Source of the DNA: an uncultured Christensenellaceae bacterium
GTDB taxonomy: Bacteria > Bacillota > Clostridia > Christensenellales > UBA3700
Assembly: GCA_944383895.1 (NCBI GenBank)
Contig: CALWRH010000004.1
Coordinates: 86,404-150,403 of the forward strand
Direction of reading: 5' to 3'
DNA: 64,000 nt
Both the position numbers and the translations under genes were made by a program. Numbering within the stretch: the stretch's first letter is position 1; each line of letters starts with the position of its first letter. This document shows, in pieces, positions 37,986-60,954 of the stretch. A model generated the notes under the pieces. The model was not told where the DNA came from. It did no database searches and was given only the letters and a program-made list of their open reading frames with translations.

Positions 37986-37997
37986 AGGAGAAAGACT

Positions 37998-38282: not shown

Positions 38283-38286
38283 TATT

Positions 38287-38321
38287 AAAGCCGAGACTCG
38301 TACAGAATCTCGGCTTTATTT
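38287..38321. terminator. Bidirectional terminator
   Basis: AAAGCCGAGA...TCTCGGCTTT between convergent operons. Confidence 0.75.
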
Positions 38322-38337
38322 ATGATAACATGATTTA

Positions 38338-40638: not shown

Positions 40639-40714
40639 TATTTATCCTCAGCAAAATCTTCATTTACATACTTCATTAATAGAAATCATATGTAATAAAC
40701 TTAACTTCCCCTTT

Positions 40715-43700: not shown

Positions 43701-43963
43701 TTGCCCTCAATATACCCATACACACCGAGGGATACCGCGTCTTGTATTCTCCAATCAGGTCTTCCCATGCGTCCTTGATTTTTAGGTTCTAAAATAATAT
43801 CAAAATTTCCACAAGGGTTCAAGTCATGTGCAATACGCTTAAACAATGTATGCATAGGCACCCGGAATGATAATTCGGCAGTATGTTGCCCACCGCGAAT
43901 CGCTGCGTCATATTCTCGCTGATATTCACGCAAATAATTTTTTACATCTACATCAAATGCCAT
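40715..43963 (-). CDS. Type IIG/ISP-like restriction-modification enzyme (nuclease + N6-MTase fold + specificity domain, no helicase)
   Basis: RPDW...GYIEGK nuclease motif, GAYYTP, DPCCGTGSF, GNPPC in place of NPPY, C-terminal GYNVIKDCWLK resembling type ISP C-terminus. Confidence 0.8.
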   Translation of the reverse strand: MAFDVDVKNYLREYQREYDAAIRGGQHTAELSFRVPMHTLFKRIAHDLNPCGNFDIILEPKNQGRMGRPDWRIQDAVSLGVYGYIEGKGPSADPFDITPYKDQINRYLTLGHKLIITDGIDFVFCFTDNPTVVSLIDKDMVNTADWSRLPINPLFRFYMEQFFSNPAPQRVNEEKLVELVAVRTRNLADEILAQSDLRMEEAINEDERHIITLLDGLKELIYNHNDPMLRTGGVFSDFVAQVIMFCLLYAHRVFCASCDSPALKAAKIREYAFKDIDDGEVLLPFRNLMVYLRDNAGHATFIDQWVDECIDFLSFVQMTDDQLMNPDYHHLFEMFLTKFDEKSRFDYGAYYTPKVLADFIVRLINRIVHDKFDGASIYDDGNTIIDPCCGTGSFLEQIIAHDDGDGAYNLCGFEILPAPYMLANYRMSIVERQYDKRNLKASIILANTLSNCLLGEKANSASIEGRELIRANELSSKPIKLIIGNPPCSDSSRNASSDDFSRISEMMDDFRPPIERRHNRQNIQKQINNPFMQFLRWSCKKLLDSECHSALAFVVPLSFLEAESYKYARKYLIEHFSHIWAIAIDADARSGIRGDSLFYTMQGRAIILLTRKYGENTHINEINYIDMSRGRRTEKISALETDIQSIIESFETFPVSDVMYSFLPVKPFNREMYARFWPISNDSGKAVFLNQCSGSKMAPTALLTHVKRSMLKRRSREIAIGGVLKAQEWIGRQDKTVVSLKIAAFQNALNTCANRQQLDTVLEDNIRQCSFRPFVNSNALLWSTVFEYQAGVGGGGTRIRPEIKAIYEHEDTIGFSLAHAPKDLDESLGQFASFCWYFPDNDLSRRGNGHIYLNQYIPNTRTNEIVNNIHRTLLDHIISLTGMNESECARKMVFYAYAIFCSQVYLDEFYGALYVVNQSESRARIPIVASSDAFFLLSTLGEKIANLEKKNVTIENVLGLDYDMLLEQLPTGFKLEHSRSASKNPFDEEHELIVLRDEISGIEIMVPCPIEILRFTVAGYNVIKDCWLKFHSFRYTHCEFTHDDFKDFLDLLNKIAKQMQYVSKVDEVLHGIVNEEIPLLVY

Positions 43964-45018
43964 TTTTTTTTACCTGCTTTTTCATAACTTTTAATAATGC
44001 TCTTCCCAATACATTCAGCCATAACAGGAGGAACAGCATTACCTATCTGCCTAGCAATATCAACTTTATTTCCAACAAACTCGAAATCTATAGGAAATGT
44101 TTGTAATAATGCACCCTCACGCAATGAAATACTACGATCCTGTATAGGATGACCAAATTTTCCTCTGGTAAAGCTATCAAATCTAGCTGTTATCGTAGGA
44201 GCGACATCGTCCCAAGCCATACGCCCATATACATTGCGAAATCCTATCACCGAACTATCAATTTTATGACAGTCTGCTAACAAATCATCTGGAAGATCAT
44301 CACGTCCTTGCCCCTCCTTAATAGCGCGAATCCGTTGCAAATTGCGTTCAGATAAATGATCGCGCCGATGAAGCGGTAACACTGGATGATCCGTTCCATC
44401 TTGCGGGGGCTCAGGAAGGTCTCCTATTGTATCACGAACCGTATGACGTATTCCTGTAGGTGCAGGATACTCGTAATAATTTCCAATGTCCTTTCGTTCG
44501 CCAATAACTATATATCTTTTGCGTCTCTGCGGAACACCATAATTTTGAGCATCTAAGAGCTCGATATGGACATAATAACCAATTTGTTCAACGTCTTCAA
44601 TAAGTTGCTGCAATATTGTCTTTCCACGTTTGCCGGCAATACCAGACACATTTTCCATAACAAAATATTTTGGATATAATTCATCAATTAAATTTCCATA
44701 CTTTAAAACTAGTCCGTTTCTTGAATCCGTATCACTACCTCTTCTCTGAACCGAAAAGCCTTGGCAAGGTGGACCTCCAGCTAATAAAAATAAATCACCT
44801 CGGCTAAGATTACAACGCTTAAGTAAGTTTCCATTAAGCATTTCTGCAATATCAGCAACAATGGCAGTATGATCAAAATACTTTTTATTTCTTTTTATTG
44901 TATCTATACATAGTTTATCTATATCAAAGCTCAATAAAATATTGAACCCTGCCCGCTCAAGCCCTAAACCTAGTCCTCCCGCACCACAGAAACTATCAAT
45001 ACAAGTATATTTAGTCAC
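43948..45018 (-). CDS. DNA cytosine-5 methyltransferase (M2)
   Basis: FCGAGG, GGPPCQGFS, ENV, QRRKR, QIGNAVPP. Confidence 0.93.
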   Translation of the reverse strand: MTKYTCIDSFCGAGGLGLGLERAGFNILLSFDIDKLCIDTIKRNKKYFDHTAIVADIAEMLNGNLLKRCNLSRGDLFLLAGGPPCQGFSVQRRGSDTDSRNGLVLKYGNLIDELYPKYFVMENVSGIAGKRGKTILQQLIEDVEQIGYYVHIELLDAQNYGVPQRRKRYIVIGERKDIGNYYEYPAPTGIRHTVRDTIGDLPEPPQDGTDHPVLPLHRRDHLSERNLQRIRAIKEGQGRDDLPDDLLADCHKIDSSVIGFRNVYGRMAWDDVAPTITARFDSFTRGKFGHPIQDRSISLREGALLQTFPIDFEFVGNKVDIARQIGNAVPPVMAECIGKSIIKSYEKAGKKKWHLM

Positions 45019-45020
45019 TC

Positions 45021-46340
45021 CTACACCCTCCCACGAGTTTTAATACCAGCAATAACACTTGAATATGAATTACTTACAGGCTCATTGATTGACTGAGGAC
45101 TATCATTTAACTCACATATGGTTGGAGATACAGACAACAATTCAATCAAAACACTAGCTGCAATAGCGGAAGACAGCATGGGCGGCACCGCTTCGCCGAT
45201 TTGTCTATATATATCATCGGATTTACCGCTAAACTCAAAGCCATTAGGAAAACTTTGAAGAAGTGCCGCTTCTCGTGCAGTAAGTCCGCGATCTTGTTCT
45301 GGATGAGTATATCGTCCACTTGCGGGGTTCCTTGCATAGTGCGTAATTGTAATTGATGGTTTATCCCAAAAAAGTCGTCCATACACATCTGAAAAGCCCT
45401 TCGTTTTATCTAAGCATTTAGGTCCAACCCCAGCAGGTCTATTTCCACCATTATGTGGAACCTTTTGAATAACCTCAATGGTGCTTTTTTTATGTGCAGC
45501 ACTTTTATGCATAGCATCATGTGGATCTGCAACGCCAGCCTCTACTGAAGGCAAATGACCAATAGCATCTCGCACAGTCCTATATTCCGAAGACTTCAAA
45601 TAGCCCGATGGTAATACAAAATTCTTTTTCATTCCGATTATAATTGAGCGGAAACGCTCTTGTGGAACGCCAAAAGCTGCCGCATTGTAAATATTTGCTT
45701 TTACAATATATCCCATTTCTTCATAGGTTTTTTTTGCGGCAGAAAAATATTTCCAATATCGCGTTGATAAAAATTCTGGTACATTTTCCATAAGTATAAC
45801 ATCCGGCTGAACTTTCTTAACAATCTCTGCAAAAGCCATAATTAAGCTGTTGCGAATATCATCCTCTTCGTTCCAGTGTTTTTTTCTATGTGAGGAAAAA
45901 CCCTGACAGGGAGCGCATCCAATCATAACGGTTGGCTTATTCTTGTCATATCCGATCATATCCAATAATGTCGTAAGCGCTCCATTTGCAAATGCCAAAT
46001 TGGTAATATCTTCATGAATAAGCGGCGTTCCAAAATTATGGCTATATGTCATTGCAGACATCTCGTTAACGTCACATCCTCCTAGCATTTTAAATGCAGG
46101 AATCACACTATTAAGTGCAGCAAATCCCAATGAAGTCCCCCCCGCTCCTGAAAAAAAATCTATCAATTGAATGGGGTTGTTTGCATAATCTAAACGTTGG
46201 ATAGGACAAAACTTCTCCAAGGCGAGTTGCGCGGCAGAAATCAACTGTTTGCTATATGGTCTAAAATCTAATGACTTACTTTTTCCTTGCAAAACATTTT
46301 TCATAAGCGTTATCCATGTCTCACACTCTCCTTTATTCAT
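45021..46340 (-). CDS. DNA cytosine-5 methyltransferase (M1)
   Basis: FSGAGG, GCAPCQGFS, ENV, QERFR, QIGEAVPP. Confidence 0.92.
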   Translation of the reverse strand: MNKGECETWITLMKNVLQGKSKSLDFRPYSKQLISAAQLALEKFCPIQRLDYANNPIQLIDFFSGAGGTSLGFAALNSVIPAFKMLGGCDVNEMSAMTYSHNFGTPLIHEDITNLAFANGALTTLLDMIGYDKNKPTVMIGCAPCQGFSSHRKKHWNEEDDIRNSLIMAFAEIVKKVQPDVILMENVPEFLSTRYWKYFSAAKKTYEEMGYIVKANIYNAAAFGVPQERFRSIIIGMKKNFVLPSGYLKSSEYRTVRDAIGHLPSVEAGVADPHDAMHKSAAHKKSTIEVIQKVPHNGGNRPAGVGPKCLDKTKGFSDVYGRLFWDKPSITITHYARNPASGRYTHPEQDRGLTAREAALLQSFPNGFEFSGKSDDIYRQIGEAVPPMLSSAIAASVLIELLSVSPTICELNDSPQSINEPVSNSYSSVIAGIKTRGRV

Positions 46341-46496
46341 ATATCGCCTCCATAATATTAGCTTTATGCCTTTTTCTTTGCAAATTCATAACTATTGTTT
46401 CTCTAGCATTGAAGTAAAAGTTGATCCTCATTTTCTTTTGACATTATACTTTGCCATATCGTTCTTATTTCTTTCATTTGGAAAGATAAATTGCTA

Positions 46497-46688
46497 CTAT
46501 TTATCAAATATAATATTGTTATTTTCGCAAAACTCTGCGAACTTGCGTTGCATGATATAGTTAGGATGCCTTACTCCATTCTCCCATTCGTTAACAGTTG
46601 AAAAGGCTACCCCCAATGTCTTTGCAAAATCTGCCTGACTTAGCATCAACTTCTGCCGAGCAAACTTAACCTTGTCTTTGTACTCCAT
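46497..46688 (-). CDS. Small XRE HTH protein (controller-like)
   Basis: LSQADFAKTLGVAFSTVNEWENG; upstream of the R-M operon. Confidence 0.85.
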   Translation of the reverse strand: MEYKDKVKFARQKLMLSQADFAKTLGVAFSTVNEWENGVRHPNYIMQRKFAEFCENNNIIFDK

Positions 46689-46785
46689 CAATATGTAACC
46701 CCATTTTATCTTAATAGTATTATTATAGCAGACTTATCGTAATAAATCAAGCTCCGATTGCCCCTTTAACTGGACTCCAAAAATC

Positions 46786-46817
46786 AATTTGCAACCCTTG
46801 CGTGTGTTTGTCTTGAT
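46786..46817 (+). repeat. 32-bp direct repeat, copy 1 (truncated nick-site copy)
   Basis: AATTTGCAACCCTTGCGTGTGTTTGTCTTGAT; 31/32 identical to 54163-54194. Confidence 0.9.
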
Positions 46818-47022
46818 TAGAGGTCGTTACAAATGACAAAAAGAGCAAGGGGCTCAAGACAACTGCTGTCTTTGCAATATATAGGTAAAAGATAGACAAA
46901 AAAGCGCGCACCTAAATTGCCTTGTGCGGAATAACAGGTATCCTTCCTAAAATTCATAATCTATTGCGTTTTCGCGGGGAACGTGCTACAATATAGCCGA
47001 AAAAGATACCAGGGGGAATTTT

Positions 47023-48423
47023 ATGTCAGATAAAAAAAATAAGGCACAGGAGCGTTACGATAAACTCGCCTATGTCAAGAAGAACTATTTTGAAGAGGCA
47101 TCCAAGAATGAGCGCAATGATATCTATGCCTATGCCGAAGGATACAAGGCGTTTCTCGATGCCGCTAAGACGGAGCGAGAGGCTTGTGTAGTGGCGGTTT
47201 CAAGGGCAAAGGAGCAGGGATTCACAGAATATCATTTTGGAGATGCGCTCGTTGCTGGCGACAAGAAGTATTTTGTCAACCGTGGTAAATCTGTTGTCGT
47301 ATTCCGTGTCGGGACACGCAATCTTGAGACGGACGGCATGCGCCTTATCGCCTCGCACATCGATGCACCTCGCGTTGACATCAAACAGATCCCGCTATAT
47401 GAGGACAGTGGCATGTGCTATCTCAAAACGCACTATTACGGCGGCATCAAGAAATATCAGTGGACAGCGATCCCGCTTGCGCTACACGGCATCGTCATTC
47501 TCAAAGACGGCACAAAGGTCTCTATCAGAGTGGGAGAGAATACCAAGGATCCAGTGTTCTACATCGATGACCTGCTTCCGCACCTCAGCGGTGAGCAGAT
47601 GGCAAAGATAGGCGGCAAGATCATTGAGGGCGAACAGCTCAACGTAGTAGTCGGCGGTTTGCCCCACGCTGATGCCGAGGCTGGCAAGCGCATTAAGTAC
47701 ACTGTGCTCGACTATCTAAACAAGGAATACGGCATGTGCGAGGAGGACTTCATCTCCGCAGAGCTAAGTGCCGTTCCCGCATATTCCGCACGCGACATTG
47801 GCTTTGACCGTGCCTTTATCGGCGCTTATGGCCACGATGACCGCGTCTGTGCATATACCGCACTTACCGCCGTCCTCAACAATGAGAGCGAGCACACCGT
47901 GCTTGCCATGCTTGTTGACAAGGAAGAGATCGGCAGCGAAGGCACGACGGGGATGCAGTCTAAGATCTATGAGGATCTCATGGAGGACATTTGTGCGGCG
48001 CTCAGTGCAAACTTTCGCAAAGTGCGCTATGCATCCAAATGCCTTTCTGCCGACGTGACCGCCGCATTCGACCCCAACTTCTCGGGTGTCTTTGAAAAGC
48101 TAAACGCCGCAATCGTCTCCTGTGGGACCTGCATGAGAAAGTTTACGGGTGCACGTGGAAAGAGCGGTTCCAACGATGCTTCTGCCGAATTTGTTGCTGA
48201 AGTCCGCAAGATATTCGATAAAGAGGGTGTCATATGGCAGACCGCAGAGCTCGGCAAAGTGGATGTGGGAGGCGGCGGTACGGTGGCAAAGTTTCTCGCC
48301 AAGCTTAACATCGACACCATCGATCTGGGCGTTCCCGTCATCTCCATGCACGCGCCTTGGGAACTCATCTCCAAGGCTGACCTCTACAGCAATTATCGCG
48401 CATTTCTCGCTTTTATGAAATAA
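47023..48423 (+). CDS. M18-family aminopeptidase
   Basis: KTERE, SHIDAPR, THYYGGIKKYQW, GHDDRVC, DKEEIGSEG, SADV, GGGTVA, SMHAPWE; promoter TTGCGT-N17-TACAAT at 46964-46992. Confidence 0.92.
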   Translation: MSDKKNKAQERYDKLAYVKKNYFEEASKNERNDIYAYAEGYKAFLDAAKTEREACVVAVSRAKEQGFTEYHFGDALVAGDKKYFVNRGKSVVVFRVGTRNLETDGMRLIASHIDAPRVDIKQIPLYEDSGMCYLKTHYYGGIKKYQWTAIPLALHGIVILKDGTKVSIRVGENTKDPVFYIDDLLPHLSGEQMAKIGGKIIEGEQLNVVVGGLPHADAEAGKRIKYTVLDYLNKEYGMCEEDFISAELSAVPAYSARDIGFDRAFIGAYGHDDRVCAYTALTAVLNNESEHTVLAMLVDKEEIGSEGTTGMQSKIYEDLMEDICAALSANFRKVRYASKCLSADVTAAFDPNFSGVFEKLNAAIVSCGTCMRKFTGARGKSGSNDASAEFVAEVRKIFDKEGVIWQTAELGKVDVGGGGTVAKFLAKLNIDTIDLGVPVISMHAPWELISKADLYSNYRAFLAFMK

Positions 48424-48852
48424 CGCGGCGCAGCGGGCATCTTCCTGTAAAATTGCCCTTTTCCACATGAGCGGCACTTACGCTGTCATGCCGTTCATTC
48501 AAACGAAGTCGTTGCCGGTTTCAGATATGCATGTAACCAGAAAACATGTCGGTAAAATACTCGGTATATTCCGAACGTATTTTTATGGTTGCTTTGTAAA
48601 AAGTGCCAATAAGGGTATGATCATTGCAGGAAAAAGAAAGAACGAATAATGTTTTGAGAAGATGCAAATAGGCGCAAGAGCTACAAAGCAAATTCGTAAA
48701 GGAAAACTAGAGGGGGTGTTCTGTTGTCGGAACACTTCCCAGTTTTTTTGTACTTATAGGGGGATAAAATTCAAATTTATTCAATAGAATTTTCAAAATA
48801 TTTATTACACAGTAGCGTCAATCCTGCAATTATTAAAAATGCTTGATCCCAC

Positions 48853-48881
48853 TTGACAAAATTAAAATTTTTAGGTATAAT
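48853..48881 (+). promoter_or_regulatory. Consensus sigma-A promoter of precursor 1/rSAM1
   Basis: TTGACA-N17-TATAAT. Confidence 0.8.
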
Positions 48882-48902
48882 TTATTCATAGGAGGTAATA
48901 TT

Positions 48903-49004
48903 ATGATTTTTTATGACGATATTGAAACATCGTATGCTGCTGATTGCAAGTGCGATGACTATTGTTCCGATTGTCCCAATAATTCAACTGGTTGCGATGA
49001 ATAA
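48903..49004 (+). CDS. Putative RiPP precursor 1 (33 aa): MIFYDDIETSYAADCKCDDYCSDCPNNSTGCDE
   Basis: Translated by hand; AGGAGGT RBS; 5 Cys; followed by hairpin 49011-49038 and a radical SAM gene. Confidence 0.8.
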   Translation: MIFYDDIETSYAADCKCDDYCSDCPNNSTGCDE

Positions 49005-49066
49005 CGCACGTACTCTCTCCTACACTAGGGGGAGAGTATATTATTTTTCAAGGCTTATATTGTATC

Positions 49067-50341
49067 ATGAATTACAAGAAATCTTTATATAATCTGCTTA
49101 TTCCTTATACCAATAATGAAACCATCATTTTTAACTCTTTTACTGGTGCTATTGGAAAACTTGATAAAAACACCTTAAAGCATTACAATGAAAATCAATT
49201 TTCAGAAACAGAAATTGAGATTCTTTCCAAAAAGGGAATATTAATACCCGTTGATTTAGATGAAAAGAGTAAAATTAACAGTGAAAGAAAAAAAGGCATT
49301 GAAAATAACCATGCGAAACTTTTTAGAATTTGGCCCACCTCTGGTTGCAATGCAAGATGTTATTACTGTTTTGAAAAAGGCATAAAAATTACTAATATGT
49401 CGAAAAAGACGGCAGATGATGTAGTCAATTTCATTGATAATACACTAAACGAAGAAGATGTTTTAAGATTAGAGTGGTTTGGTGGGGAGCCGCTTTTAAA
49501 TGTCGAAATAATTGATTACATCATGGATAAATTAAATATTATCTGCGCAAATAAACGGTGTGAAATTCAGAATTCCATGATAAGCAACGGAAGTTTGATT
49601 ACTGAAGATTTAGTATTAAAAATGAAAAACAAATGGAATATACAATCCATCCAAATCACTTTAGATGGTTATGACTCAACTTACAACCAAATAAAAAATT
49701 ATTATAATCCAGTTACTTGCAATTTTAAAAAAGTGATTGAAGCTATAAAATTACTTTCTAAAAGTGGCATAAAAACAGCTATCCGTATGAATTACGATAC
49801 AAAAAATTATCAGAGTCTTGTAGAATTAATCGAATTTTTACATATAGAGTTAAGTGGATATAAAAAGCTAATATATTATGTCTTTCCTGTTTGGAGTTCC
49901 ACTGATGAATATGCCGAAAATTCATATTCTTCCACTACTATAGCAGATATGAACTTATTGTCATTATTTGACTTATTAGTAAAATATCGAATGAGTACCA
50001 TCAAAGCCATAGCTCGACTTAATTATAAAGCACATGCTTGTCAAGCTTGGAATCTTCATAGTTATGCAATTTTACCCAATGGCGACATTGCTAAATGTTG
50101 TGAATCGTACAATCAAGTGATTGGTTCTGTTACACAAGGGATTACAGATATAGACACATATAATTTTTGGACAACTTCAATTTTAGAAGAAAAATGCGAT
50201 TCATGTATTTACCTGCCTCTTTGTCAAGGTGGCTGCAAGTCATCCTACTTTAATAGAATGCCGCATTGTTTTGCCTTTAAACCAATTATCAACGAAATAC
50301 TAAAATGGTATGTTTCTTACTTAGACAACCAATGTAAATGA
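49067..50341 (+). CDS. Radical SAM/SPASM peptide maturase 1
   Basis: CNARCYYC, WFGGEPLL, ITLDG, SPASM cysteines (CQA...KCC...CDSCIYLPLCQGGC...C); N-terminal RRE-like segment. Confidence 0.9.
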   Translation: MNYKKSLYNLLIPYTNNETIIFNSFTGAIGKLDKNTLKHYNENQFSETEIEILSKKGILIPVDLDEKSKINSERKKGIENNHAKLFRIWPTSGCNARCYYCFEKGIKITNMSKKTADDVVNFIDNTLNEEDVLRLEWFGGEPLLNVEIIDYIMDKLNIICANKRCEIQNSMISNGSLITEDLVLKMKNKWNIQSIQITLDGYDSTYNQIKNYYNPVTCNFKKVIEAIKLLSKSGIKTAIRMNYDTKNYQSLVELIEFLHIELSGYKKLIYYVFPVWSSTDEYAENSYSSTTIADMNLLSLFDLLVKYRMSTIKAIARLNYKAHACQAWNLHSYAILPNGDIAKCCESYNQVIGSVTQGITDIDTYNFWTTSILEEKCDSCIYLPLCQGGCKSSYFNRMPHCFAFKPIINEILKWYVSYLDNQCK

Positions 50342-50419
50342 ATTCAATCCCGATTTTGGTTAAAATCAAAGAAATGGGGGTTTTATATCTAATTGTGATT
50401 GTACAAATTTAATCGATCT

Positions 50420-50811
50420 TTATCTTTTTTGACGAATTGAACAATAATTAATATAACACTTTAAAATGTTACCTAATATTGGCTTATATACAAAATATTT
50501 AGGCTTTCTTGTAAAATTTGATGTTTTATAACCACCTTGACAGATGGGTTAATACATAATATCTTTACATTTTTTTTATCATCGATTCCCTGTCTTCTAT
50601 CGTTATTAACCTTAAGACTCTCATTATAATTATTGAGAACAATAATTCCTTTCCTTAATAAAATAGAGCTTCTTGCAAAAGATTTAACGAATTATATCTT
50701 TCCATTAAATTATCTTCAAATAAACCAATTACGCCAGATAAAGTATCGAATATTATTGTCTTAACAGCCAAAGGGAATAAACAAGTTGTATCTTGATTTT
50801 TTATACTTAAT
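50420..50811 (-). pseudogene. Internally deleted, frameshifted paralog of radical SAM 1
   Basis: Fragments KYKKSRYNLFIP / KTIIFDTLSGVIG / ILLRKGII...NNDRRQGIDD...CINP / CQGGYKTS...YKPILGNILKCY match the N- and C-termini of 49067-50341; start reads ATT after GGGAG. Confidence 0.8.
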
Positions 50812-50828
50812 CGTTTCTCCCTACTTAC

Positions 50829-52139
50829 TTAAGAAGTATATTTTTTGCCTTTAGAAATATATTCTAAAACTTGATTCTTAATCTTAGCTAATAAAGCATT
50901 ATATATCAAACAGTTCCCGTTCTTTACAGAACAATCATAGATACCAAAACATTCACACTGACATGCTGGATATAAATCACATGTTTGACATCCCAAATTC
51001 ATATTGCCCATAGCACTTTGTTTTTGAGCATCATTGTAATATAATCCATCAAAAATAGATCCTATGACTTTATTCCCCAACCCAATATAATGCTCACATT
51101 TATACAATTCTCCACTTGGACCTATAACGAAATTATTTTTCTTTGCCATCCCACAAAAAACTGGCTGAAAAAAAGGGGGCCGTTCTACTGATTGTTTAGG
51201 ATATAGGCTTTCTTGTGAAAGTTTATTATAAAATCTTTTTTTTACAAGGGAAAATTCATCAACAAAATAACAGTTTCCACATAAATTATCAATATAGTCT
51301 CTAATATTGGAAAGACTGATTTTTATTTTCCCTTTAAGCCCTAAACCTTTCAATAAGTAATATGCTAATTTATAAAGTTCATGCAAATTTTTTTTATCAG
51401 CGTTCAGTCTAATGGTAACTGTTAATATATCCGCTATTTCTTTTATGTTATTTACAACGATATAAAAATTATTTTTATCCGTTCTTTTTCGCATTGCGTA
51501 CGTTTCGCTAAATCCATCTAAGGTAATTTGCACGCGATTAATTCTTGCATCAGTAACTAATTTTTCAGCACGCTCTCTAGTTAATAATAATCCATTAGAA
51601 ATCATACTTGCATTATACTCAATCCCCAATGGCTTAAGTAAGCATAAAAGTCTTTCACTAATATTTAATATCAAATCATAGCAAAGCATTGGCTCCCCGC
51701 CAAACCAACAAATCTTAAGCTTTTTGATGCTTTTCTTGTTTTTTATCGTTTTAACAATAAATTGTATGACTTTATCCGCAGTTTCGGTCGTCATTACAAC
51801 TTCTTTATCGCTGTTCGCCTCAAAGCAATAAACACAATTCATATTGCATTTCATTGTAGGAGCAATAACATAAGACAACGAATCTACCTGATCAGATTGC
51901 AATTTAGAATGCATTATATATTTAGCTTTAAAAAATTCATTTTGACAATTTGGTACTAGAAAACCTTGCCTTATTAAATCATAATGAATTTTTTCAGAAC
52001 ATTGAATTTTTTCCCCCAATAATTCTTGATATATAACATTTTCCAATCTAACAATTGAACCAGAAAAAGTATTATATAAAATGACAGTATTTTCATCTTG
52101 AGAAATCTTAATAGAATACTTTGATAGTTTATAAATCAT
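50829..52139 (-). CDS. Radical SAM/SPASM peptide maturase 2
   Basis: CNMNCVYC, WFGGEPML, QITLDG, CG...GELYKC...CQTCDLYPACQCEC. Confidence 0.9.
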   Translation of the reverse strand: MIYKLSKYSIKISQDENTVILYNTFSGSIVRLENVIYQELLGEKIQCSEKIHYDLIRQGFLVPNCQNEFFKAKYIMHSKLQSDQVDSLSYVIAPTMKCNMNCVYCFEANSDKEVVMTTETADKVIQFIVKTIKNKKSIKKLKICWFGGEPMLCYDLILNISERLLCLLKPLGIEYNASMISNGLLLTRERAEKLVTDARINRVQITLDGFSETYAMRKRTDKNNFYIVVNNIKEIADILTVTIRLNADKKNLHELYKLAYYLLKGLGLKGKIKISLSNIRDYIDNLCGNCYFVDEFSLVKKRFYNKLSQESLYPKQSVERPPFFQPVFCGMAKKNNFVIGPSGELYKCEHYIGLGNKVIGSIFDGLYYNDAQKQSAMGNMNLGCQTCDLYPACQCECFGIYDCSVKNGNCLIYNALLAKIKNQVLEYISKGKKYTS

Positions 52140-52142
52140 CTT

Positions 52143-52331
52143 TTAGTCCCTATCACACATATCGCATCCATCACAGAAACAATTATCACAATCACAGCTA
52201 CAATAATAATCGCAATTACAGTCATCGCAATCGCAACGACAAGGCCAATCATGACTGTCAGGACAATCATCGCGATTCAACCAACAATCACCAACACTTA
52301 ATAAAATACCCGTTTCTAAAATAATATCCAT
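52143..52331 (-). CDS. Putative RiPP precursor 2 (62 aa, 14 Cys, CxCD repeats)
   Basis: MDIILETGILLSVGDCWLNRDDCPDSHDWPCRCDCDDCNCDYYCSCDCDNCFCDGCDMCDRD; AGGAG RBS; TTGACA-N17-TATCAT promoter near 52407. Confidence 0.82.
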   Translation of the reverse strand: MDIILETGILLSVGDCWLNRDDCPDSHDWPCRCDCDDCNCDYYCSCDCDNCFCDGCDMCDRD

Positions 52332-52580
52332 TATTCTTCTCCTGATCATATACACATAAAACATTATTGTGTGAGAAAATGATATCATAAGAAAACTACT
52401 TTGTCAATGTGCAACGTAGTTTTCTAATTTTTTCGAATCAGCCTCAAAAATATCACCTTTTACTTAGCGACACCATGGCACAGAACTGCGGTATAACTAA
52501 AAATAAACCGCATAAAAAAGACAAGCATTCCATCTATTATCAACAAGTACTTTTATGTTTTACTAATATGCAATAATACT

Positions 52581-53792
52581 TTATTCATTATGCATCCAAC
52601 GTCCCTTTTTAGGAGAGTAAAAGCAACGAGGATTCTTTTGTTTAATACTTCCCGCAGCTATACCTAAAGGTCTACAATCCTTGCAAGCATATCTAAATTC
52701 ACATTGTTTACATTCATCCAATTTTGAAAAATCATAATGCCAAAAATTTTTACATGCATTTGAGTTTAATATTTCAAATATAGACTTATCTTTCACATTT
52801 CCATATACTATTTGTCGTTCAAAAACACACGGCAATACATCTCCTGTTTCACTTACAACAAATTTTCCATACCAACATGTATTTCTTTGTTGTGCAGCAT
52901 GAAACCTTTGCTCAGATATTGAAAAACGAGGTTTCGTTCTACATTTTAGTTCAATTAGATCTTTCCTTGTTGCCTCATGAAATTTATCCCCACAACTTTT
53001 TACAGATCTAACTAAATCAAATTTATATTTTTTTATGCCAAGCTCTCTAATAAATTTAATCGTATCGTTATAGTACTCTTCATTTTCACGCATGATTGAT
53101 ACAGCTATTGTAATAGATAAATTATTGTCCAACATCCTATGTATATTATCAACCGTTTTATTAAAGCTGCCTTGCGTTAAAGTTATAGCATCATGAATTT
53201 GAGCATTAGGTCCATATAATGACACATTGATACGGACAGAATTTCGAACGAAACATTTTAACAACTCGTCATGTAAAATTGTGCCGTTTGTGAAATACGA
53301 AATGCTTTTAAAGTTTAAGTTTCCTGCATAATCTATCAATTTAATAATTTCATTACAACACGAAGGCTCCCCTCCGATAAACTGAATATGCTTACAATTC
53401 AATGTGTTTAATTGATCAAGAACCAAAAACCATTCTTCTGTTTTTAACTTATTGCTTTTTGACTCATGAGTTATACCCTCATAGCAATGTATACATTTAA
53501 GATTGCAGGACTGCGTAACTTCAAGCCAACAAAAATTTATTTCTGTATCAAATTCTTCTTTAAAATTAAATTCTTTATAGCTATATTCAGGATCAATTAA
53601 TTCTTTGGAATATAGCTCGTACAAATATCGTTGCTCATCAATATTTTCTACACGATTTGTTTCTATATAATTTTTAAGAAAAACACAGGCTTCGTGATTT
53701 ATAGCATAAATCCTACTTCTTTTAAAATCATATATTGCACCATTAACGGCTCCAAATACTACTGCTGTTGTTTTAGAAAGAGAAATTACCAC
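52581..53792 (-). CDS. Radical SAM/SPASM peptide maturase 3
   Basis: CNLKCIHC, FIGGEP, VSLYG, CWYGK...LPCVF...CKQCEFRYACKDCRP...C. Confidence 0.9.
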   Translation of the reverse strand: MVISLSKTTAVVFGAVNGAIYDFKRSRIYAINHEACVFLKNYIETNRVENIDEQRYLYELYSKELIDPEYSYKEFNFKEEFDTEINFCWLEVTQSCNLKCIHCYEGITHESKSNKLKTEEWFLVLDQLNTLNCKHIQFIGGEPSCCNEIIKLIDYAGNLNFKSISYFTNGTILHDELLKCFVRNSVRINVSLYGPNAQIHDAITLTQGSFNKTVDNIHRMLDNNLSITIAVSIMRENEEYYNDTIKFIRELGIKKYKFDLVRSVKSCGDKFHEATRKDLIELKCRTKPRFSISEQRFHAAQQRNTCWYGKFVVSETGDVLPCVFERQIVYGNVKDKSIFEILNSNACKNFWHYDFSKLDECKQCEFRYACKDCRPLGIAAGSIKQKNPRCFYSPKKGRWMHNE

Positions 53793-53812
53793 AACACACC
53801 ACTCCTACAGAA

Positions 53813-53840
53813 AAATAAGCAACAATATTGTTGCTTATTT
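53813..53840. promoter_or_regulatory. Perfect 28-bp palindrome between precursor 3 and rSAM3
   Basis: AAATAAGCAACAAT|ATTGTTGCTTATTT. Confidence 0.6.
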
Positions 53841-53856
53841 ATTTCTGATCAATTAG

Positions 53857-54036
53857 TTAATCTGGATTACAATCACCATAGTCTGGTCCGCAATTCCCCG
53901 AAGGAGCATCTTCAGGCGAGCATATATCAGGATTACACCACCCACTATCTGGGTTACATGTGCTTGGATCATCATATGAAGGATTACACATTGTAATTAC
54001 TCTAACGGTATCAGTAACATCTTCTAATAACAACAT
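53857..54036 (-). CDS. Putative RiPP precursor 3 (59 aa, six CxP repeats)
   Basis: Translated by hand: MLLLEDVTDTVRVITMCNPSYDDPSTCNPDSGWCNPDICSPEDAPSGNCGPDYGDCNPD; GAGGTG RBS; TTGACA-N17-TATACT promoter at 54082-54054. Confidence 0.82.
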   Translation of the reverse strand: MLLLEDVTDTVRVITMCNPSYDDPSTCNPDSGWCNPDICSPEDAPSGNCGPDYGDCNPD

Positions 54037-54162
54037 AGTTCACCTCTATTTATAGTATACAACATCTTAAATTATATGTCAATACATATAAACATCTTTT
54101 ATTACAGATATCTTACGCAAAGCAGAATATATAATAAGTATCGTAAACAAGGTAATTAATTT

Positions 54163-54330
54163 AATTTGCAACCCTTGCGTGTGCTTGTCTTGATACGAGA
54201 GCGCCGGCACTGCGTGCCGTCGCGACAAGCACACGCAAGGCTGAAATCAGCAGGATAAATCAAACAAAGCGCGACGGAAGCGGAGTCGCACGCTGAACCG
54301 CTTTTTGCGACTTCCGCTTTTCCGTCTCGC
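54163..54330 (+). other. Putative rolling-circle double-strand origin (includes direct repeat copy 2)
   Basis: Stem CCTTGCGTGTGCTTGTC...GACAAGCACACGCAAGG enclosing CTTGTCTTGATAC, similar to the pC194/phiX174 nick motif CTTG/ATA; second hairpin at about 54270-54330; lies just past the rep stop. Confidence 0.7.
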
Positions 54331-54367
54331 GGCATTTTGTTTTTGACGTATATCCTTTTACTGTATT

Positions 54368-55402
54368 TCAGTTGCCTTTGCGCAATTTTTCTATTACGTC
54401 CTTGCTTACTGGTCCAATATACTCGCCCTCGTCCCAGCATATGAAGTTGTCAAAGAGCAATAATTTCGATTCCTCAACACCGATTTTGCAGACAATATCG
54501 TCATCTTCGATATCAGAGTAAAAGAATTGAGGAAGACCTTTCGAATACACGATCTTCTCTCCTGTCTTTTCCATATACTTTGCCAGATATGCTATTGCGC
54601 TGCCGAGATCGGTTTTGCTGTCAACCGCCTTAAAATCAGATCTGCCGAAACGTTCGTTGAAGTACGTATTCTGGGTCGTGACCTGCACTTTGTCTTTTAT
54701 CGGAGAATAGTCTTTAACGACTATCAGTTCACCAGGCATGCTTCCATCTGGAATATAGAACAAACCGTGAAAATGCAGTCTTTTCTTTTCCGGAGACCTC
54801 TCCCAAACCCCGGCATACTTCCATTTCTTTCTGTGACACATCATCTTGAAACAACATCTCAACTTTTTCTTAAAATCGCTTTCGGACAGTTTTGACCCGT
54901 CATAGGTAAACGTGCAGAAGTAATTAAACTCCTGCAAATTTATCTTTCTTGTCAACCTGATACGCCGGCAGATAAGATTGCGTTGCTTTCTCTCAAACTG
55001 ACTGTCAACATAAAGCTTCGCAGTCTTTCTATCTTTGAAATACGGAAGCATCTCTTTGAGAATACAACTCTTTCGTTCGTTTCTTTTCAAGTTAATGTTT
55101 TCAGCATATAGTCTTTCAAACATCTCCTTTTTAGTTTCCGCTCTTAGCTGTTGACCAGATGCTTTTTTACTGTCATAGTTGTCGCTCGCAGTTAAATCGG
55201 CATCATTTTCAATCTCTTCTTTATCGACAGAAAAAGGCAGTTCGTCAGTTTCCACCTCTTGACACTCCGACTTGATATCTCCTGTTAAAGAATCTATCTC
55301 ATCGTCAATCTGAACAGACCTTTTTTTCGCAGGACGTTCCGTGTGCGGAATAGCAATATAATGACTTCCGTCAAAATAAACTTTGCAGTTGCTGTACGGC
55401 AT
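54368..55402 (-). CDS. HUH rolling-circle replication initiator (two-Tyr type)
   Basis: Motif I FCTFTY, motif II RLHFHGLF, motif III YLAKYMEK; AAGGAGGTG RBS. Confidence 0.85.
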   Translation of the reverse strand: MPYSNCKVYFDGSHYIAIPHTERPAKKRSVQIDDEIDSLTGDIKSECQEVETDELPFSVDKEEIENDADLTASDNYDSKKASGQQLRAETKKEMFERLYAENINLKRNERKSCILKEMLPYFKDRKTAKLYVDSQFERKQRNLICRRIRLTRKINLQEFNYFCTFTYDGSKLSESDFKKKLRCCFKMMCHRKKWKYAGVWERSPEKKRLHFHGLFYIPDGSMPGELIVVKDYSPIKDKVQVTTQNTYFNERFGRSDFKAVDSKTDLGSAIAYLAKYMEKTGEKIVYSKGLPQFFYSDIEDDDIVCKIGVEESKLLLFDNFICWDEGEYIGPVSKDVIEKLRKGN

Positions 55403-55414
55403 ATTATCACCTCC

Positions 55415-57523
55415 TTATTTTACGTCTTTATACAGAGTGTTAATGAAATAACTGTTCTGCATTTTGAGTTCCTCAACGGTAGCCTTTTCGGATGCGTATT
55501 CGAGATAATCGCTCAGCCCGACGTTGGTCTTCTTCGCCATATCGTTGAAGTAGTCGGAAAAACAGTCTGTCGAAAAACGACGCGAGTAAATCTTCTTGTT
55601 CATCAGATAATACTTTTTCTTCTCGCACCGGGCATTCATTGTGCCGCGTTCTTTTTCTATACGCAAAGAACAGTAACCGAACCTGTTGTACAGCCTGATA
55701 TTGCGCCTCCAAAGCCACGAAGTAACAGTCTTTAGAAGATAGACCAGCAAAGTGTTGTCTCCTCGCTTAAAACGGAAATCGTAGTACAGAGAAATAAAGC
55801 GGTTAAAGAACCACTCGCTTATCATCTCCTCAATGGTATAGAAAGGCATTGCAAGCCTCTGTTCGCTCGAATCCACAATATGGATAATATCGCACAAATC
55901 TCTTGCGTCCGCTCCCCAGGATTCCGGTCTCTGTTCGTCCGTAAAAACTTTGATAAAAGGATAATTGTCTATCGTCGCGCTGTGACGGCACATTTTCAGC
56001 CAACTGTTGAACAAGTCGTTCTTCTGATTCGTTTCATCTGTACCTTTCTTAACTTCCTTTAATTCAAGATTATTTCCGCGCTCCTTTCCGATCTCAGATA
56101 TGGCTATTACACCAAACTCAAAGCTGCCTGTTTTCGGGTTGTTTTCTATCAGCTTTTTACCTAGTCGCAAAGCGTCGAAATCTATGATATGTGCGTGTCT
56201 TCCGTCAGTGATGCCTTCCGGGAAAAAGTCCATTACCCAGACAGGAAAATTACCACGGTCTAACAGCGTATTATCTACACGGACAGAATAATTTGACACG
56301 ATAAGACTGCTTTCCGTAACGTAGACGAAATACGCTAATGCGTATGTCTTCAACACGTCGAAAAGGGCGCAGACTTTGAGTGCGTCGTTATAATAAAAGC
56401 CGTACCTCTCGACGTCGTAACCGTACAGTTGCAAGTCGGCGTTTTCGTGCCTCTCAAACCGTTCTCTTTTCTTCTTGATCCACTCCTTGACGGTAGCAAG
56501 ATTATATACCGTTCCGTACTCGATACAGAGTCTTAATTCGTCCTCAAACGCTATCCACGGGAAGTATGGAAACTTCATATCGTTGTCCTGCAAAATCTTG
56601 TACGCCTTCTGACGGAACATTACTTCCTGAGAAAGTGCCATATCGGTAATCAATGTCGTTTTCTTCTTTCCCATGCTTCCGCAGGATATGGACACAATGG
56701 GAACTTCATTGATAAATCCGCAGTTCTTTGCCTCGAAATATCGTAGCGTAGAATCAGCTATATTCTTTCTGATCTTATCAAAAATCAGCCATGCGACAAT
56801 ACCTATGATCCACCACGGGAAAGCCTTGAATATCACCTGCAAGTCGATAAACAGTTTGCATATTTGCAGATACAGCGTGTCTATCTTATACGATACCGCG
56901 AAGTAAAAATAATACGCGAAAAACTCCACGATAATCGAAGCTATGTTGAGATTGAAACACCATATCGCCACCCATAAGACGATCAACACGTTATGCTCCC
57001 TGAGATAACCGATATAGTTTACTATATACCGCTTTAACGGCTGGTACGTCACGTTAGATACCTTCTTGAATATGCGTAATGGCAGAGTGTCTTCATTGTG
57101 TCTCGTGTTGTCTTTGCTGTACAGTTTCTTGATAATGAAAAACAAGATAAGAGTACACGGCAGCGCAATGACCAATGCCTTCGCTATGTTTCCCGTAGTT
57201 CTTCCGCTATGAACGAGCCAGGACTTGAAATTGTTCTCGTCTACCAGAAGCGAGAAATAGGCTTTTGCCTTCTGCGTAAAGCTCTCAAAATCGGCAGGCA
57301 GAAGTATATTCCAGGACATTACGTCCGAACGGCTTAAAACCGTGGCTTCCACGCTGTATCTTATCCCGAATATCTCGCAGAAGTATATCCGGACGCTGTT
57401 CCAGAGATCCTTTGCGCTCTCGGCAAATCGAAGGTACGACGTATCGAAAACGAAGAAAGCCAAAGCGACAAAAGTAGCCGTCAGAACAAAGCTCGTTATT
57501 ATGTTAGATACTTTGTATTTCAT
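55415..57523 (-). CDS. Multi-TM P-loop ATPase, Zot/inovirus pI-like
   Basis: Several N-terminal TM helices, Walker A-like GSMGKKKTT, IAISEIGK, KMCRH, DEQRP; adjacent to Rep. Confidence 0.6.
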   Translation of the reverse strand: MKYKVSNIITSFVLTATFVALAFFVFDTSYLRFAESAKDLWNSVRIYFCEIFGIRYSVEATVLSRSDVMSWNILLPADFESFTQKAKAYFSLLVDENNFKSWLVHSGRTTGNIAKALVIALPCTLILFFIIKKLYSKDNTRHNEDTLPLRIFKKVSNVTYQPLKRYIVNYIGYLREHNVLIVLWVAIWCFNLNIASIIVEFFAYYFYFAVSYKIDTLYLQICKLFIDLQVIFKAFPWWIIGIVAWLIFDKIRKNIADSTLRYFEAKNCGFINEVPIVSISCGSMGKKKTTLITDMALSQEVMFRQKAYKILQDNDMKFPYFPWIAFEDELRLCIEYGTVYNLATVKEWIKKKRERFERHENADLQLYGYDVERYGFYYNDALKVCALFDVLKTYALAYFVYVTESSLIVSNYSVRVDNTLLDRGNFPVWVMDFFPEGITDGRHAHIIDFDALRLGKKLIENNPKTGSFEFGVIAISEIGKERGNNLELKEVKKGTDETNQKNDLFNSWLKMCRHSATIDNYPFIKVFTDEQRPESWGADARDLCDIIHIVDSSEQRLAMPFYTIEEMISEWFFNRFISLYYDFRFKRGDNTLLVYLLKTVTSWLWRRNIRLYNRFGYCSLRIEKERGTMNARCEKKKYYLMNKKIYSRRFSTDCFSDYFNDMAKKTNVGLSDYLEYASEKATVEELKMQNSYFINTLYKDVK

Positions 57524-57650
57524 AGGCAATCCTTCCTGATAGTGCAACAGTTTCGACAGATAGTCGGCTACCTGTGTAAACGAGATAACCGACCAGAGCT
57601 GCGATTGCGACCAAGAGGAGAATTGCGATTATCCTCTTAATCTGTTTCAT
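57504..57650 (-). CDS. Small single-TM protein (48 aa)
   Basis: Translated by hand: MKQIKRIIAILLLVAIAALVGYLVYTGSRLSVETVALSGRIAYEIQSI; AAGGAGGAG RBS; fills the gap between genes. Confidence 0.7.
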   Translation of the reverse strand: MKQIKRIIAILLLVAIAALVGYLVYTGSRLSVETVALSGRIAYEIQSI

Positions 57651-59051: not shown

Positions 59052-59066
59052 ATCGCACCTCCTCGT

Positions 59067-59666: not shown

Positions 59667-59677
59667 AGGCGTACTCC

Positions 59678-60953: not shown

Positions 60954-60954
60954 C

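Follow-up and report, generated by a model that had tools for sequence, protein, structure and literature searches.

A half-copy of a conserved Rep origin borders predicted peptide-antibiotic-like genes in a tRNA-integrated element of a chicken-gut Clostridium

The window analysed here, a stretch of 64,000 nucleotides from the draft genome of a chicken-gut Clostridium, contains an element of about 31 kb integrated at the 3' end of a tRNA-Ser gene (tga; 32469 to 32557, plus strand, ARAGORN). Homology among copies of the element, as found by blastn, starts at 32529, within the 3' end of this tRNA gene, and thus marks the left end of the integrated element. From left to right the element is composed of a conserved module A, a variable cargo region, an origin hairpin, a gene for an HUH Rep, both internal to the element, and a run of membrane-protein genes, and a small sigma-70 region-4 protein (63268 to 63666, minus strand; Pfam and PHROGs) is encoded close to its right end. 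Module A (32529 to 38293, plus strand; Pfam) is kept in all relatives and comprises, among others, a minus-strand open reading frame (ORF) of 383 aa, DUF7222, a PcfJ-like protein and a weak PcfK-like match. The host assembly consists of 18 contigs and holds several near-identical copies of the origin, one of them at a contig end. At least four related copies of the element are found in the genome, so that exchange partners are present, and two of them flank a LexA-like gene, one on each side.

The older part of the variable cargo region (38294 to 46748, minus strand; Pfam) encodes an AAA_13 ATPase (38338 to 40638), an N6-methylase with a Type ISP C-terminal domain (40715 to 43963), two C5 cytosine methylases (43948 to 45018 and 45021 to 46340) and a small HTH protein (46497 to 46691), and blastn finds no counterpart of this part in the variable regions of relatives. 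Nearer the origin lies an M18 aminopeptidase gene (47023 to 48423, plus strand; PF02127, E = 1.5e-88), followed by three radical-SAM genes, one of them with SPASM, each adjoining a Cys/Asp-rich ORF of 53 to 81 aa, an arrangement assigned to RiPP biosynthesis. The first gene (49067 to 50341) follows its small ORF (48843 to 49004) on the plus strand; the second (50829 to 52139, small ORF at 52143 to 52388) and the radical-SAM/SPASM gene (52581 to 53792, with a small ORF of repeated CNPD motifs at 53857 to 54036) are on the minus strand. The GC content is 0.51 across 47001 to 48000, on the M18 side, and 0.29 to 0.32 across 49001 to 54000, in agreement with the initial annotation, which had described a GC-richer aminopeptidase gene and an AT-rich RiPP block between two copies of a nick site. 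Judged by gene content, this 7.3-kb block between the nick-site copies is predicted to carry peptide-antibiotic-like genes. A donor of the cargo was not found, the closest radical-SAM relative being 37 % identical.

The rep gene (54368 to 55402, minus strand) encodes a two-tyrosine HUH protein with the motif H210-F-H212 and with Y272, K275 and Y276. Its match to PF23343 (REP_ORF2-G2P; 43.5 bits, E = 4e-11) exceeds the cut-off of 27.8, and a Pfam scan at E up to 0.01 returned PF23343 alone and no IS91-type transposase domain (Pfam Y2_Tnp). An alignment of 14 Reps (41 to 100 % identity) shows no variation at H210, F211, H212, Y272, K275 or Y276, and PF23343 is carried by 120 of 120 Rep homologues among the matches listed. 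Rep homologues number 3195 proteins at E up to 0.001, rep was found in 28 of the 74 genomes of the host's family, and the element family may be widespread and undescribed.

Beside rep lies the gene for a 710-aa membrane protein (55415 to 57547, minus strand) with four predicted N-terminal helices and a P-loop NTPase domain. Relatives of this ATPase form 1163 clusters, and no Pfam or PHROGs match was obtained even at E up to 10; its structural model is confident (pLDDT 94), yet gave no significant structural match, and an Atlas search pointed to a Zot cluster (0.88, rank 21) as a lead. Further genes on the minus strand (57504 to 61848) encode proteins of 48, 466, 199, 372, 66 and 297 aa, each with an N-terminal hydrophobic segment and conserved in relatives; the 372-aa protein has a weak Big_2 match, under Pfam's cut-off. 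ICE-type families (relaxase with oriT, coupling protein, VirB4-type ATPase) had no Pfam matches in the ORFs scanned, where a PcfJ domain and a weak PcfK match are present, and the HUH Rep and the adjoining membrane P-loop ATPase could conceivably act as relaxase and coupling protein. Genomes of the Inoviridae are about 5 to 15 kb in size and encode a Rep, a ssDNA-binding protein, coat proteins and an ATPase. The inoviruses of gut Clostridia, as far as the consulted part of one report describes them (Enterocloster inoviruses, PMC10061712; see also Roux et al. 2019, PMC6813254), share with the element an ORF2/G2P-family Rep, a membrane-bound P-loop ATPase beside rep, a series of proteins of varied size, small and large, that have membrane segments at the N-terminus, and an integrated, cargo-bearing state. 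Unlike them, the element has no Zot or other phage match by Pfam or PHROGs, and the membrane part of its ATPase is N-terminal; a small Inoviridae-like genome was ruled out by the length of about 31 kb, the PcfJ/PcfK-like genes and the 16-kb cargo region.

The full origin (54163 to 54240, plus strand) lies 3' of rep and comprises a left arm with the nick motif (GTCTTGAT/ACGAG), an inner hairpin and a right arm. Its 17-bp arms (54173 to 54189 and 54224 to 54240) are perfect, and the DNA fold of -30.4 kcal/mol (z = -6.6) was equalled by 0 of 200 shuffles. Among 15 origins compared, 13-bp arms (GCGTGTGCTTGTC and its complement) are invariant or nearly so, as is TTGATAC(G/A)AG, in origins adjoining Reps down to about 40 % identity; covariation is seen at two outer arm pairs (UA in 6, GC in 6), and the pairing of the inner hairpin is kept despite differing sequences. 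The motif GTCTTGATAC, of the pC194/phiX174 type, adjoins the 17-bp arms and is conserved in the 15 origins. Where the motif was met in IMG/VR, a true origin was present in just 1 of 61 places. On the rep strand, a long inverted repeat precedes a T-run (54269 to 54335, minus strand; read by eye); this structure is conserved along with the origin and is probably the rep terminator.

Part of this origin occurs a second time, on the far side of the M18 and radical-SAM genes, as the left copy of a 32-nt direct repeat (46786 to 46817 and 54163 to 54194). The initial annotation had reported such repeats with one mismatch, an end of identity at TCTTGAT in the region of the predicted nick, and a right copy that alone extends into the full hairpin beside rep, and each of these points was confirmed. 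The copies are identical at 31 of 32 positions, with T at 46807 against C at 54184 as the sole mismatch; a 29-nt pattern allowing up to three mismatches matches the window at these two copies only, and 0 of 100 dinucleotide shuffles gave two matches. Past TCTTGAT the left copy continues into TAGAGG and the right copy into ACGAG. The right copy equals the left arm plus CTTGAT of the conserved hairpin 3' of rep, and this comparative evidence places it within a genuine Rep origin that is conserved. The left copy (plus strand) is a solo half-site, that is, the origin left arm and TCTTGAT, at which the right arm is absent and the DNA to the right of TTGAT has no origin similarity (local score 12, compared with a mean of 14 for shuffles). 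This right flank, designated r', and the region upstream of the M18 gene occupy 46818 to 47022 (plus strand), and a 19-mer search with r' gave chance matches only. Sequence comparison with solo half-sites in other genomes shows that the 37-nt flank to the left (46749 to 46785, plus strand), taken with the arm, is 85 % identical to those in G058:C9 and G066:C15.

For an 18-contig draft with several near-identical origins, a chimeric contig joined at the shared repeat is an obvious concern, and one that we regard as highly improbable. A 16,041-nt contig of run X1, which may be the source sample, spans 43000 to 54192 with 0 differences, run X2, which belongs to a different study, supplies a 617-nt contig that matches 46735 to 47351 with 0 differences, and the left junction is therefore not an assembly artefact of the window; in addition, the variant base of the left copy makes its 31-mers unique.

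Downstream of the left copy, GCAAGGG at 46846 to 46852 is complementary to CCCTTGC of the arm, with which it can form a weak hairpin (z = -3.1), and the region folds better than shuffles, of which 1 of 200 was equally good. This short complement is not explained by a join made by Rep and counts against that reading. The fold, and the near-perfect arm and 37-nt flank conserved with solo sites elsewhere, would suit a half-site kept by selection, either as a programmed terminator that excludes the cargo from a packaged or transferred single strand or as a Rep operator before the HTH or M18 genes. Against such selection, which seems quite improbable, the second site is absent from the origin-side cargo region of 7 of 8 related element copies, the exception being G004:C27, and the solo sites of G066 and G043 adjoin ordinary genes with no Rep within 14 kb.

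A variable cargo region is present at this place in every relative compared. The suggestion that related elements would vary in cargo at the exact junction held in part: the cargo here differs, whereas in all 7 relatives compared the border falls at the outer edge of the repeat (54158 to 54175), about 30 nt left of the nick, so that ordinary cargo turnover at a hotspot needs neither nick nor Rep. The arm-plus-nick motif occurs at 22 places in the 74 genomes and is doubled in this element only, no other element of the sample having a further half-site that stops at TTGAT; the other doubled arm lies on G004:C27, a small separate contig, and its break is displaced 7 nt to the left, to the position where serine-recombinase elements insert. 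Solo left arms lacking a right arm were found at eight places in the fetched loci, three of them with one common junction, and every break falls in an interval of about 16 nt around the nick. An independent junction is present in G066:C15, G058:C9 and G043:C45, where the arm ends in CTTTGAT or CTTTTAT and is followed by ACGAGCGGGAATGA. In G030:C1, ACGAGCGGGAATGA closes an intact methyltransferase-like ORF, of which it supplies the last five codons and the stop, and is preceded by GGGATCCCG; orthologues in G032 and G034 likewise end in (A/C)CGAGCGA, so that the end of this gene looks like a native pseudo-site. The sequence X shared by the independent junction is 95 to 99 % identical across two genera and the adjoining gene 70 to 80 %, so X may be mobile and G030 may not be a true empty site. 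The independent junction stops at the same TTGAT position as the left copy in the window, against unrelated DNA, which is what a Rep-made join predicts, and both events can be accounted for by a join after TTGAT without further assumptions.

The same junctions bear on a rearrangement independent of nicking, in which related tandem or co-resident elements would have recombined or undergone a deletion, the end point falling by chance at the end of the arm and the arm surviving by selection as a Rep-binding site. Several element copies in one genome, among them the pair at the LexA-like gene, would provide the partners, and the border outside the hairpin in all relatives points to ordinary recombination as the main source of cargo change. 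We consider this explanation unlikely, since a chance end point no more than 2 nt from the predicted nick would be improbable in a 31-kb element, the second junction stops at the same position, and the arm is 31/32 intact with everything rightward unrelated.

Elements encoding a large serine recombinase also insert into the origin arm. G034 carries a 7.4-kb insert bounded by GCTTGT on one side and GTCTTTGAT on the other, with GT at both ends; in G010:C29 a recombinase gene abuts GTCTTGATAC, and a copy in the host's own genome, at the beginning of C4, ends in a like manner within rep. Such insertions would favour site-specific accretion, in which a recombinase-less island (CIME-like) was mobilised by a recombinase at an att site overlapping the origin arm, the 32-nt repeats being attL and attR. 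These insertions, however, cross at GT, 7 nt left of the end of the window repeat, and a direct repeat of 32 nt is at odds with the 2-bp overlap that serine recombinases leave; neither a recombinase gene nor a fragment lies in 46818 to 54162, and the element's own chromosomal junction is the tRNA-Ser gene, not the origin. Accretion thus appears distinctly unlikely.

It is somewhat probable, from the position of the junctions, that the left copy arose when Rep joined the origin's 3' side to a pseudo-site. From the observed anatomy, conservation and junction positions we infer that Rep would nick the plus strand within GTCTTGAT/ACGAG, leaving the left arm as the 3' (termination) end of the displaced strand and the remainder of the hairpin as the 5' end held by Rep. 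The left copy would be the scar (L/r' junction) of a Rep-made, or at least nick-dependent, join that ligated the 3' side of an origin, with the defence cargo on its left, to a pseudo-site lying upstream of the M18 gene, and the M18/radical-SAM block would have come to lie between half-site and intact origin. The join may have arisen by read-through of a split origin into neighbouring DNA and termination at the next left arm, as in IS91/ISCR, by insertion through Rep catalysis of a circle carrying a hybrid site, or by strand transfer between co-resident elements.

Work by Michel and Ehrlich and by Gros et al. reportedly indicates that a short part of an origin suffices as an end point. In the consulted parts of Wassenaar et al. 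(2016; PMC5037232), CTTG/ATA is given as the nick motif of pC194-type origins, and their qacC model invokes homologous recombination of a nicked fragment and not Rep joining. This canonical nick position is 2 nt left of the end of identity and counts against a join made by Rep. The pC194/pUB110 family of rolling-circle plasmids, to the extent that this source describes it, resembles the present case in its HUH Rep, a nick motif containing CTTGATA, and junctions and mobile segments bounded by the double-strand origin nick. Unlike in these plasmids, the origin here belongs to a chromosomally integrated element of about 31 kb, lies 3' of and antisense to rep and has a long conserved hairpin, and its Rep is of PF23343, not Rep_1.

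In IS91, CTTG adjoins the origin end, and ISCR elements capture adjacent DNA when termination is missed. The proposal in the initial annotation of an IS91/ISCR-like capture by Rep is probable as to manner, with the independent half-site junction at TTGAT in its favour, and falls as to family, with a Rep of PF23343 only and a tRNA-integrated island: the proposed capture would work like that of IS91/ISCR, yet the element is not of that family. Shared features, in the consulted part of PMC5714925, are a two-tyrosine HUH enzyme, an origin downstream of its gene and an antisense displaced strand. Unlike IS91/ISCR, the element has no IS91-type transposase domain and no ori91/ter91 ends, exceeds them 20-fold in size and integrates at a tRNA site of its own, and the half-site duplication is a single case in the sample and not its mode of moving. 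A small element bounded by origin and terminator was ruled out by the internal position of the origin in the tRNA-Ser-integrated element.

More broadly, and as a tentative possibility, these may be a family of tRNA-integrated gut-Clostridia elements of about 30 kb in which a phiX174-like two-tyrosine Rep doubles as a recombinase that joins the 3' side of the origin to pseudo-nick sites, solo arms being its footprints; defence and RiPP cargo would be gained and shed at the nick, in an ISCR-like capture on a phage- or ICE-sized element, and the origin would serve also as a landing site for serine-recombinase elements. If Rep makes such joins, the origin of a common gut-Clostridia element would be a gene-capture site, which would explain the defence systems and peptide-antibiotic-like clusters beside it, and loss or retention of cargo would be predicted to depend on the point of rolling-circle termination. 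The element family has no functional annotation, and its defined origin and nick motif make it experimentally tractable.

In f1 and in pT181 or pC194 two-origin constructs, nick sites in direct repeat allow replication to start at one and end at the other, giving a circle of the interval, and a truncated origin terminates but cannot initiate. Those constructs are laboratory-made, whereas the window would be a natural case, known here from its sequence; the half-site offers a natural test of truncated-origin termination, a process described for plasmid and f1 constructs. During rolling-circle replication of the excised element the fork would reach the left half-site before the cargo, and termination there would yield a cargo-free circle with the origin restored. 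A start at the left half-site is less likely because its right arm is missing, and loss of cargo by early termination would be likelier than the self-replicating cargo circle that the initial annotation had envisaged. Neither a cargo circle nor a deletion joint was seen in contigs. A contig of run X6 holds 46801 to 53811 at about 99 % identity with different sequence on either side, and the cargo, with part of the arm, therefore exists in another context.

The 32-nt sequence at 46786-46817 (left copy) is repeated at 54163-54194 (right copy) with a single difference, T at 46807 versus C at 54184, which confirms the pair of 32-bp repeats with one mismatch described in the initial annotation. A 29-nt pattern, searched with up to three mismatches, matched the window twice, at the two copies, and none of 100 shuffled sequences contained two matches. 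As that annotation also stated, the last identical bases are TCTTGAT and a hairpin continues at the right copy only, where an inner hairpin is enclosed by perfect 17-bp arms at 54173-54189 and 54224-54240, with a folding energy as single-stranded DNA of -30.4 kcal/mol (z = -6.6). Its GC-richer aminopeptidase gene and AT-rich RiPP block are likewise present between the copies, as an M18 aminopeptidase gene (47023-48423, GC 0.51) and then three radical-SAM genes at 49067-50341 (plus strand), 50829-52139 (minus strand) and 52581-53792 (minus strand, with SPASM), each adjoining one small Cys/Asp-rich ORF in DNA with a GC of 0.29-0.32. The best relative of the second radical-SAM gene among species representatives is 37% identical. 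A precursor-like ORF (53857-54036) has five CNPD repeats, and the ORF at 52143-52388 has a C-terminal dense C/D run. The left junction was crossed without differences by contigs of sequencing runs from two studies.

The repeat pair is located in an island integrated at a tRNA-Ser gene (32469-32557), and the sequence from 32529 onward is common to own-genome copies at the start of contig C4, at C4:153736-158317 and on C17, and to relatives. All copies of the element have one gene order: module A, a variable region, the origin, rep, the gene for a 710-aa protein and a row of genes for N-terminally hydrophobic proteins. Module A (32529-38293) is conserved and contains DUF7222, a PcfJ domain and a weak PcfK match. 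The variable region measures 3.2 kb in G014 (G-numbers denote genomes of the host's family, G000 being its own), 5.5 and 6.8 kb in the first and second copies of G058, 6.3 kb in G037, 7.9 kb in G042, 8.9 kb in the own copy at the start of C4, 15.9 kb in the window and 16.4 kb in G035. The initial annotation had proposed comparing related elements for variable cargo at the nick junction; the cargo is indeed variable at this place, but in the seven relatives with both sides on fetched DNA, similarity to the window ends at 54158-54175, the outer edge of the right copy, and not at the nick. From the variable regions of the relatives, the sequence between the copies is the origin-proximal half of a cargo hotspot, which the left copy splits into a defence part (AAA_13, a Type ISP-like methylase, two C5 methylases and an HTH protein) and the M18/radical-SAM part. 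A DNA search with 46400-49000 for the cargo donor in 74 family genomes matched the arm region only, and a 19-mer from the sequence right of the left copy (r') had no match in the genome contigs; two metagenome-contig matches of this 19-mer were rejected as chance, being otherwise dissimilar to the window. A 13.7-kb contig of run X6 matched 46801-53811 at about 99% (57 differences, 6 gaps) and had 4.4 kb and 2.2 kb of other sequence flanking the cargo, and the run gave no cover of 43000-46500; by these flanks the cargo and at least part of the arm exist in another context.

The rep gene (54368-55402, minus strand) matches PF23343, and residues H210-F-H212, Y272, K275 and Y276 are invariant across 14 aligned homologues, which makes Rep a two-tyrosine HUH enzyme. 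In an alignment of 15 origins, taken from elements whose Reps are as little as about 40% identical, TTGATAC(G/A)AG and the two 13-bp arms were invariant or nearly so, two outer arm pairs covaried (UA in 6, GC in 6), and the inner hairpin varied in sequence with its pairing kept. The nick motif of pC194-type origins is CTTG|ATA, as given in PMC5037232. In the window the nick motif is on the plus strand, antisense to rep, and the origin is located 3' of rep. The phiX174 motif is identical to CTTG|ATA. Given this strand and position, the displaced strand would have ACGAG... at its start, pass rep, follow the excised circle round, and have the variable region and then the left arm as its last part. 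Such a predicted geometry is that of IS91, as described in part in PMC5714925. Two origins have CTTTTA(T) in place of CTTGAT: an orphan at G000:C3:101292-101459 with no rep nearby, and one in G049:C1 (locus L022) with an intact rep alongside. A scan of IMG/VR for doubled nick sites returned 61 places with the 16-mer, 60 by chance and one a true origin, and none was doubled.

Right of TTGAT, the local alignment score between the left copy and the origin was 12, below the shuffle mean of 14, and the possibility that the left copy is a decayed full origin was rejected on these dissimilar right flanks. An 8-mer, TTACAAAT, common to the flanks of the left copy and of a half-site in G004 was attributed to chance, as 624 of 2000 shuffles scored as well. 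On the other side, the arm of the left copy plus its 37-nt left flank has 85% identity to sites in G058:C9 and G066:C15. In G066:C15 (L208), G058:C9 (L209) and G043:C45 (L210) the left arm ends with CTTTGAT or CTTTTAT and is followed by ACGAGCGGGAATGACC..., a continuation that is 95-99% identical among G066, G043, G034 and G030 over more than 200 nt. In G030:C1 (L212) the same continuation is preceded by ...TATCTTTGGGATCCCG and itself supplies the closing codons (D-E-R-K-stop) of an intact ORF of 111 aa, which by eye looks like an alkyltransferase/methyltransferase-type protein; the orthologues in G032 and G034 likewise end with (A/C)CGAGCGA, and the uninterrupted site of the G030 type is GGGATCCCGACGAGCGG. 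Most simply, these sequences would reflect the joining of a left arm to a native pseudo-site that resembles the origin on its right side (ACGAG). As ACGAG is common to both sides, the G066/G058/G043 junction can be placed only to within 5 nt; it and the junction of the window are both compatible with a join after TTGAT, and a join at CTTG|AT would require AT to open both targets, which is not so in G030. The sequence shared by G066, G043, G034 and G030 is far more similar across two genera (95-99%) than are the orthologues of the neighbouring gene (70-80%), and it may itself be mobile, and G030 may not be the true empty site. Contigs of four runs, compared at 90% likeness on 43000-58000, contained no joint of 46817 to 54195 and no circle joint, a result that is uninformative because contigs drop rare variants. 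The end of an X1 contig at 54192 was discarded as a hint of nicking, since it is expected from a k = 31 graph with shared sequence starting at 54163.

All fetched family loci were scanned for solo arms, meaning left arms without a right arm. The left copy of the window breaks after TTGAT, those of G066, G058 and G043 have one common junction, and the arm of G051:C24 breaks 8 nt right of GAT. Others break after GCTTGTC (G031:C86) or GCTTGT (G034 and G004:C27, L244), the last continuing into the fragment VYKLDRFSR, which is resolvase-like by eye. In G034 (L240, 10143-17574) both ends of a 7.4-kb insert with a serine-recombinase-like gene and a distant rep were seen, bounded by GCTTGT and GTCTTTGAT with GT at either side. 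A large serine-recombinase gene in G010:C29 (L055, 1-1400) ends 45 nt from ...TTGCA|GTCTTGATAC, and the rep of the own-genome copy at the start of C4 (G000:C4:1-74, corresponding to window 54913) is interrupted by the same kind of end, TGCAACCTAATTTTATGG. The origin arm is thus also the landing site of a serine-recombinase element, which in one case uses rep instead. The end of that element reads TGCAAC..AATTTTATGG. Its crossover is 7 nt to the left of TTGAT, on the GT of GCTTGT|C, and not at the junction of the window. In the 4520-nt contig G004:C27, whose layout resembles that of the window, about 4.1 kb with methylase genes separates a full origin from an additional arm copy upstream; the break of this copy is at the recombinase position, and a stray GTCTTGATAC precedes it. 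The arm-plus-nick motif occurs at 22 places in 74 genomes, with two in one element only in that of the window.

We lean slightly towards reading the left copy as the result of a join, Rep-made or nick-dependent, between a pseudo-site and the 3' side of an origin (L|r', L being the left arm). The order to be explained is V1-L|r'-cargo-L|R-rep, where V1 is the older defence cargo and R the rest of the origin hairpin, and three candidate routes would all yield it. Replication could run through a split, Rep-integrated origin into the DNA beside it and stop at the next left arm; a circle with a hybrid L|r' site could insert into an intact origin; or co-resident elements could exchange strands and then be resolved by homologous recombination in module A. 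Starting from the intact origin, replication would reach the left half-site before the cargo, and termination there would give a cargo-free circle with the origin restored. Truncated origins terminate in pC194 and f1 constructs. Excision of the cargo as its own circle, as proposed in the initial annotation, would need a start at the half-site, which is without a right arm, and the substitute hairpin there is weak (CCCTTGC with GCAAGGG, z = -3.1, 1 of 200 shuffles as good). Rolling-circle plasmids are known for joins at the nick site and for gene movement bounded by the origin, and IS91/ISCR for capture by missed termination. The case described here would work as these do and is not a member of either, as its Rep belongs to PF23343 and it is a large tRNA-integrated island. 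The earlier interpretation, Rep-mediated capture of an IS91/ISCR-like kind, is partly supported: the likeness is one of working, with junctions compatible with a join after TTGAT, and not one of family membership. Three features are new: a natural pairing of a half-origin with a full origin around a RiPP-like block, solo arms that recurrently end at TTGAT, and a serine-recombinase element that uses this same arm.

The element family is uncharacterised and common. Rep homologues are present in 28 of the 74 genomes of the host's family, and 3195 were found in a large protein collection at E up to 0.001, the few named ones being called hypothetical; no plasmid record matched, and NCBIfam gave no match for 10 element proteins. 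Four helices are predicted at the N-terminus of the 710-aa protein (55415-57547), which also has a P-loop, GSMGKKKT (GxMGxGKTT in the family consensus), and an invariant E485; its family forms 1163 clusters at 50% identity. Sequence searches with it gave no match in Pfam, PHROGs, NCBIfam or PDB at the usual thresholds. A model from 7 sequences was poor (pLDDT 44.5) and one from 105 sequences was good (pLDDT 94.1); Foldseek searches of PDB and BFVD with the latter had no hit at E up to 0.001, and there was one Atlas lead to Zot-like proteins (0.88). The membrane-anchored proteins in a row and a small protein of 118 aa are reminiscent of an inovirus morphogenesis module, and in its size and PcfJ/PcfK-like genes the element resembles conjugative or mobilisable elements; it could be assigned to neither group.

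A repeat of the tRNA end at the right border (attR) was not found by short blastn. Directly upstream of tRNA-Ser, a tandem repeat (31976-32474, period about 226 nt) holds partial tRNA copies (32095-32121, 32197-32214, 32318-32344 and 32420-32437), which may be remains of earlier integrations. A 383-aa ORF (32758-33909) adjoins the tRNA-Ser end of the element, the expected place of an integrase; Pfam and NCBIfam gave no integrase match for it, the sole similarity being a weak one to HEPN. Immediately beyond the right end of the window (G000:C4:151099-161405), a second element of the same family begins after a LexA-like gene and has a 522-aa large serine recombinase in place of this ORF, followed by module A, AAA_21/RloB and DUF2971 genes, and the contig end. 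The 57-kb unverified "Bacteriophage sp." scaffold MT835493.1 (L056), from human faeces, has the same gene order, including the LexA-like gene following the element, and may represent a piece of chromosome and not the genome of a phage. The window from 1 to about 30000 is ordinary spore-former chromosome (SpoIIR, SipL, YpeB, a DEAD helicase and others), syntenic within the genus. The 3091-aa ORF at 757-10032, with a weak MBG-domain match only, probably encodes a giant surface protein.
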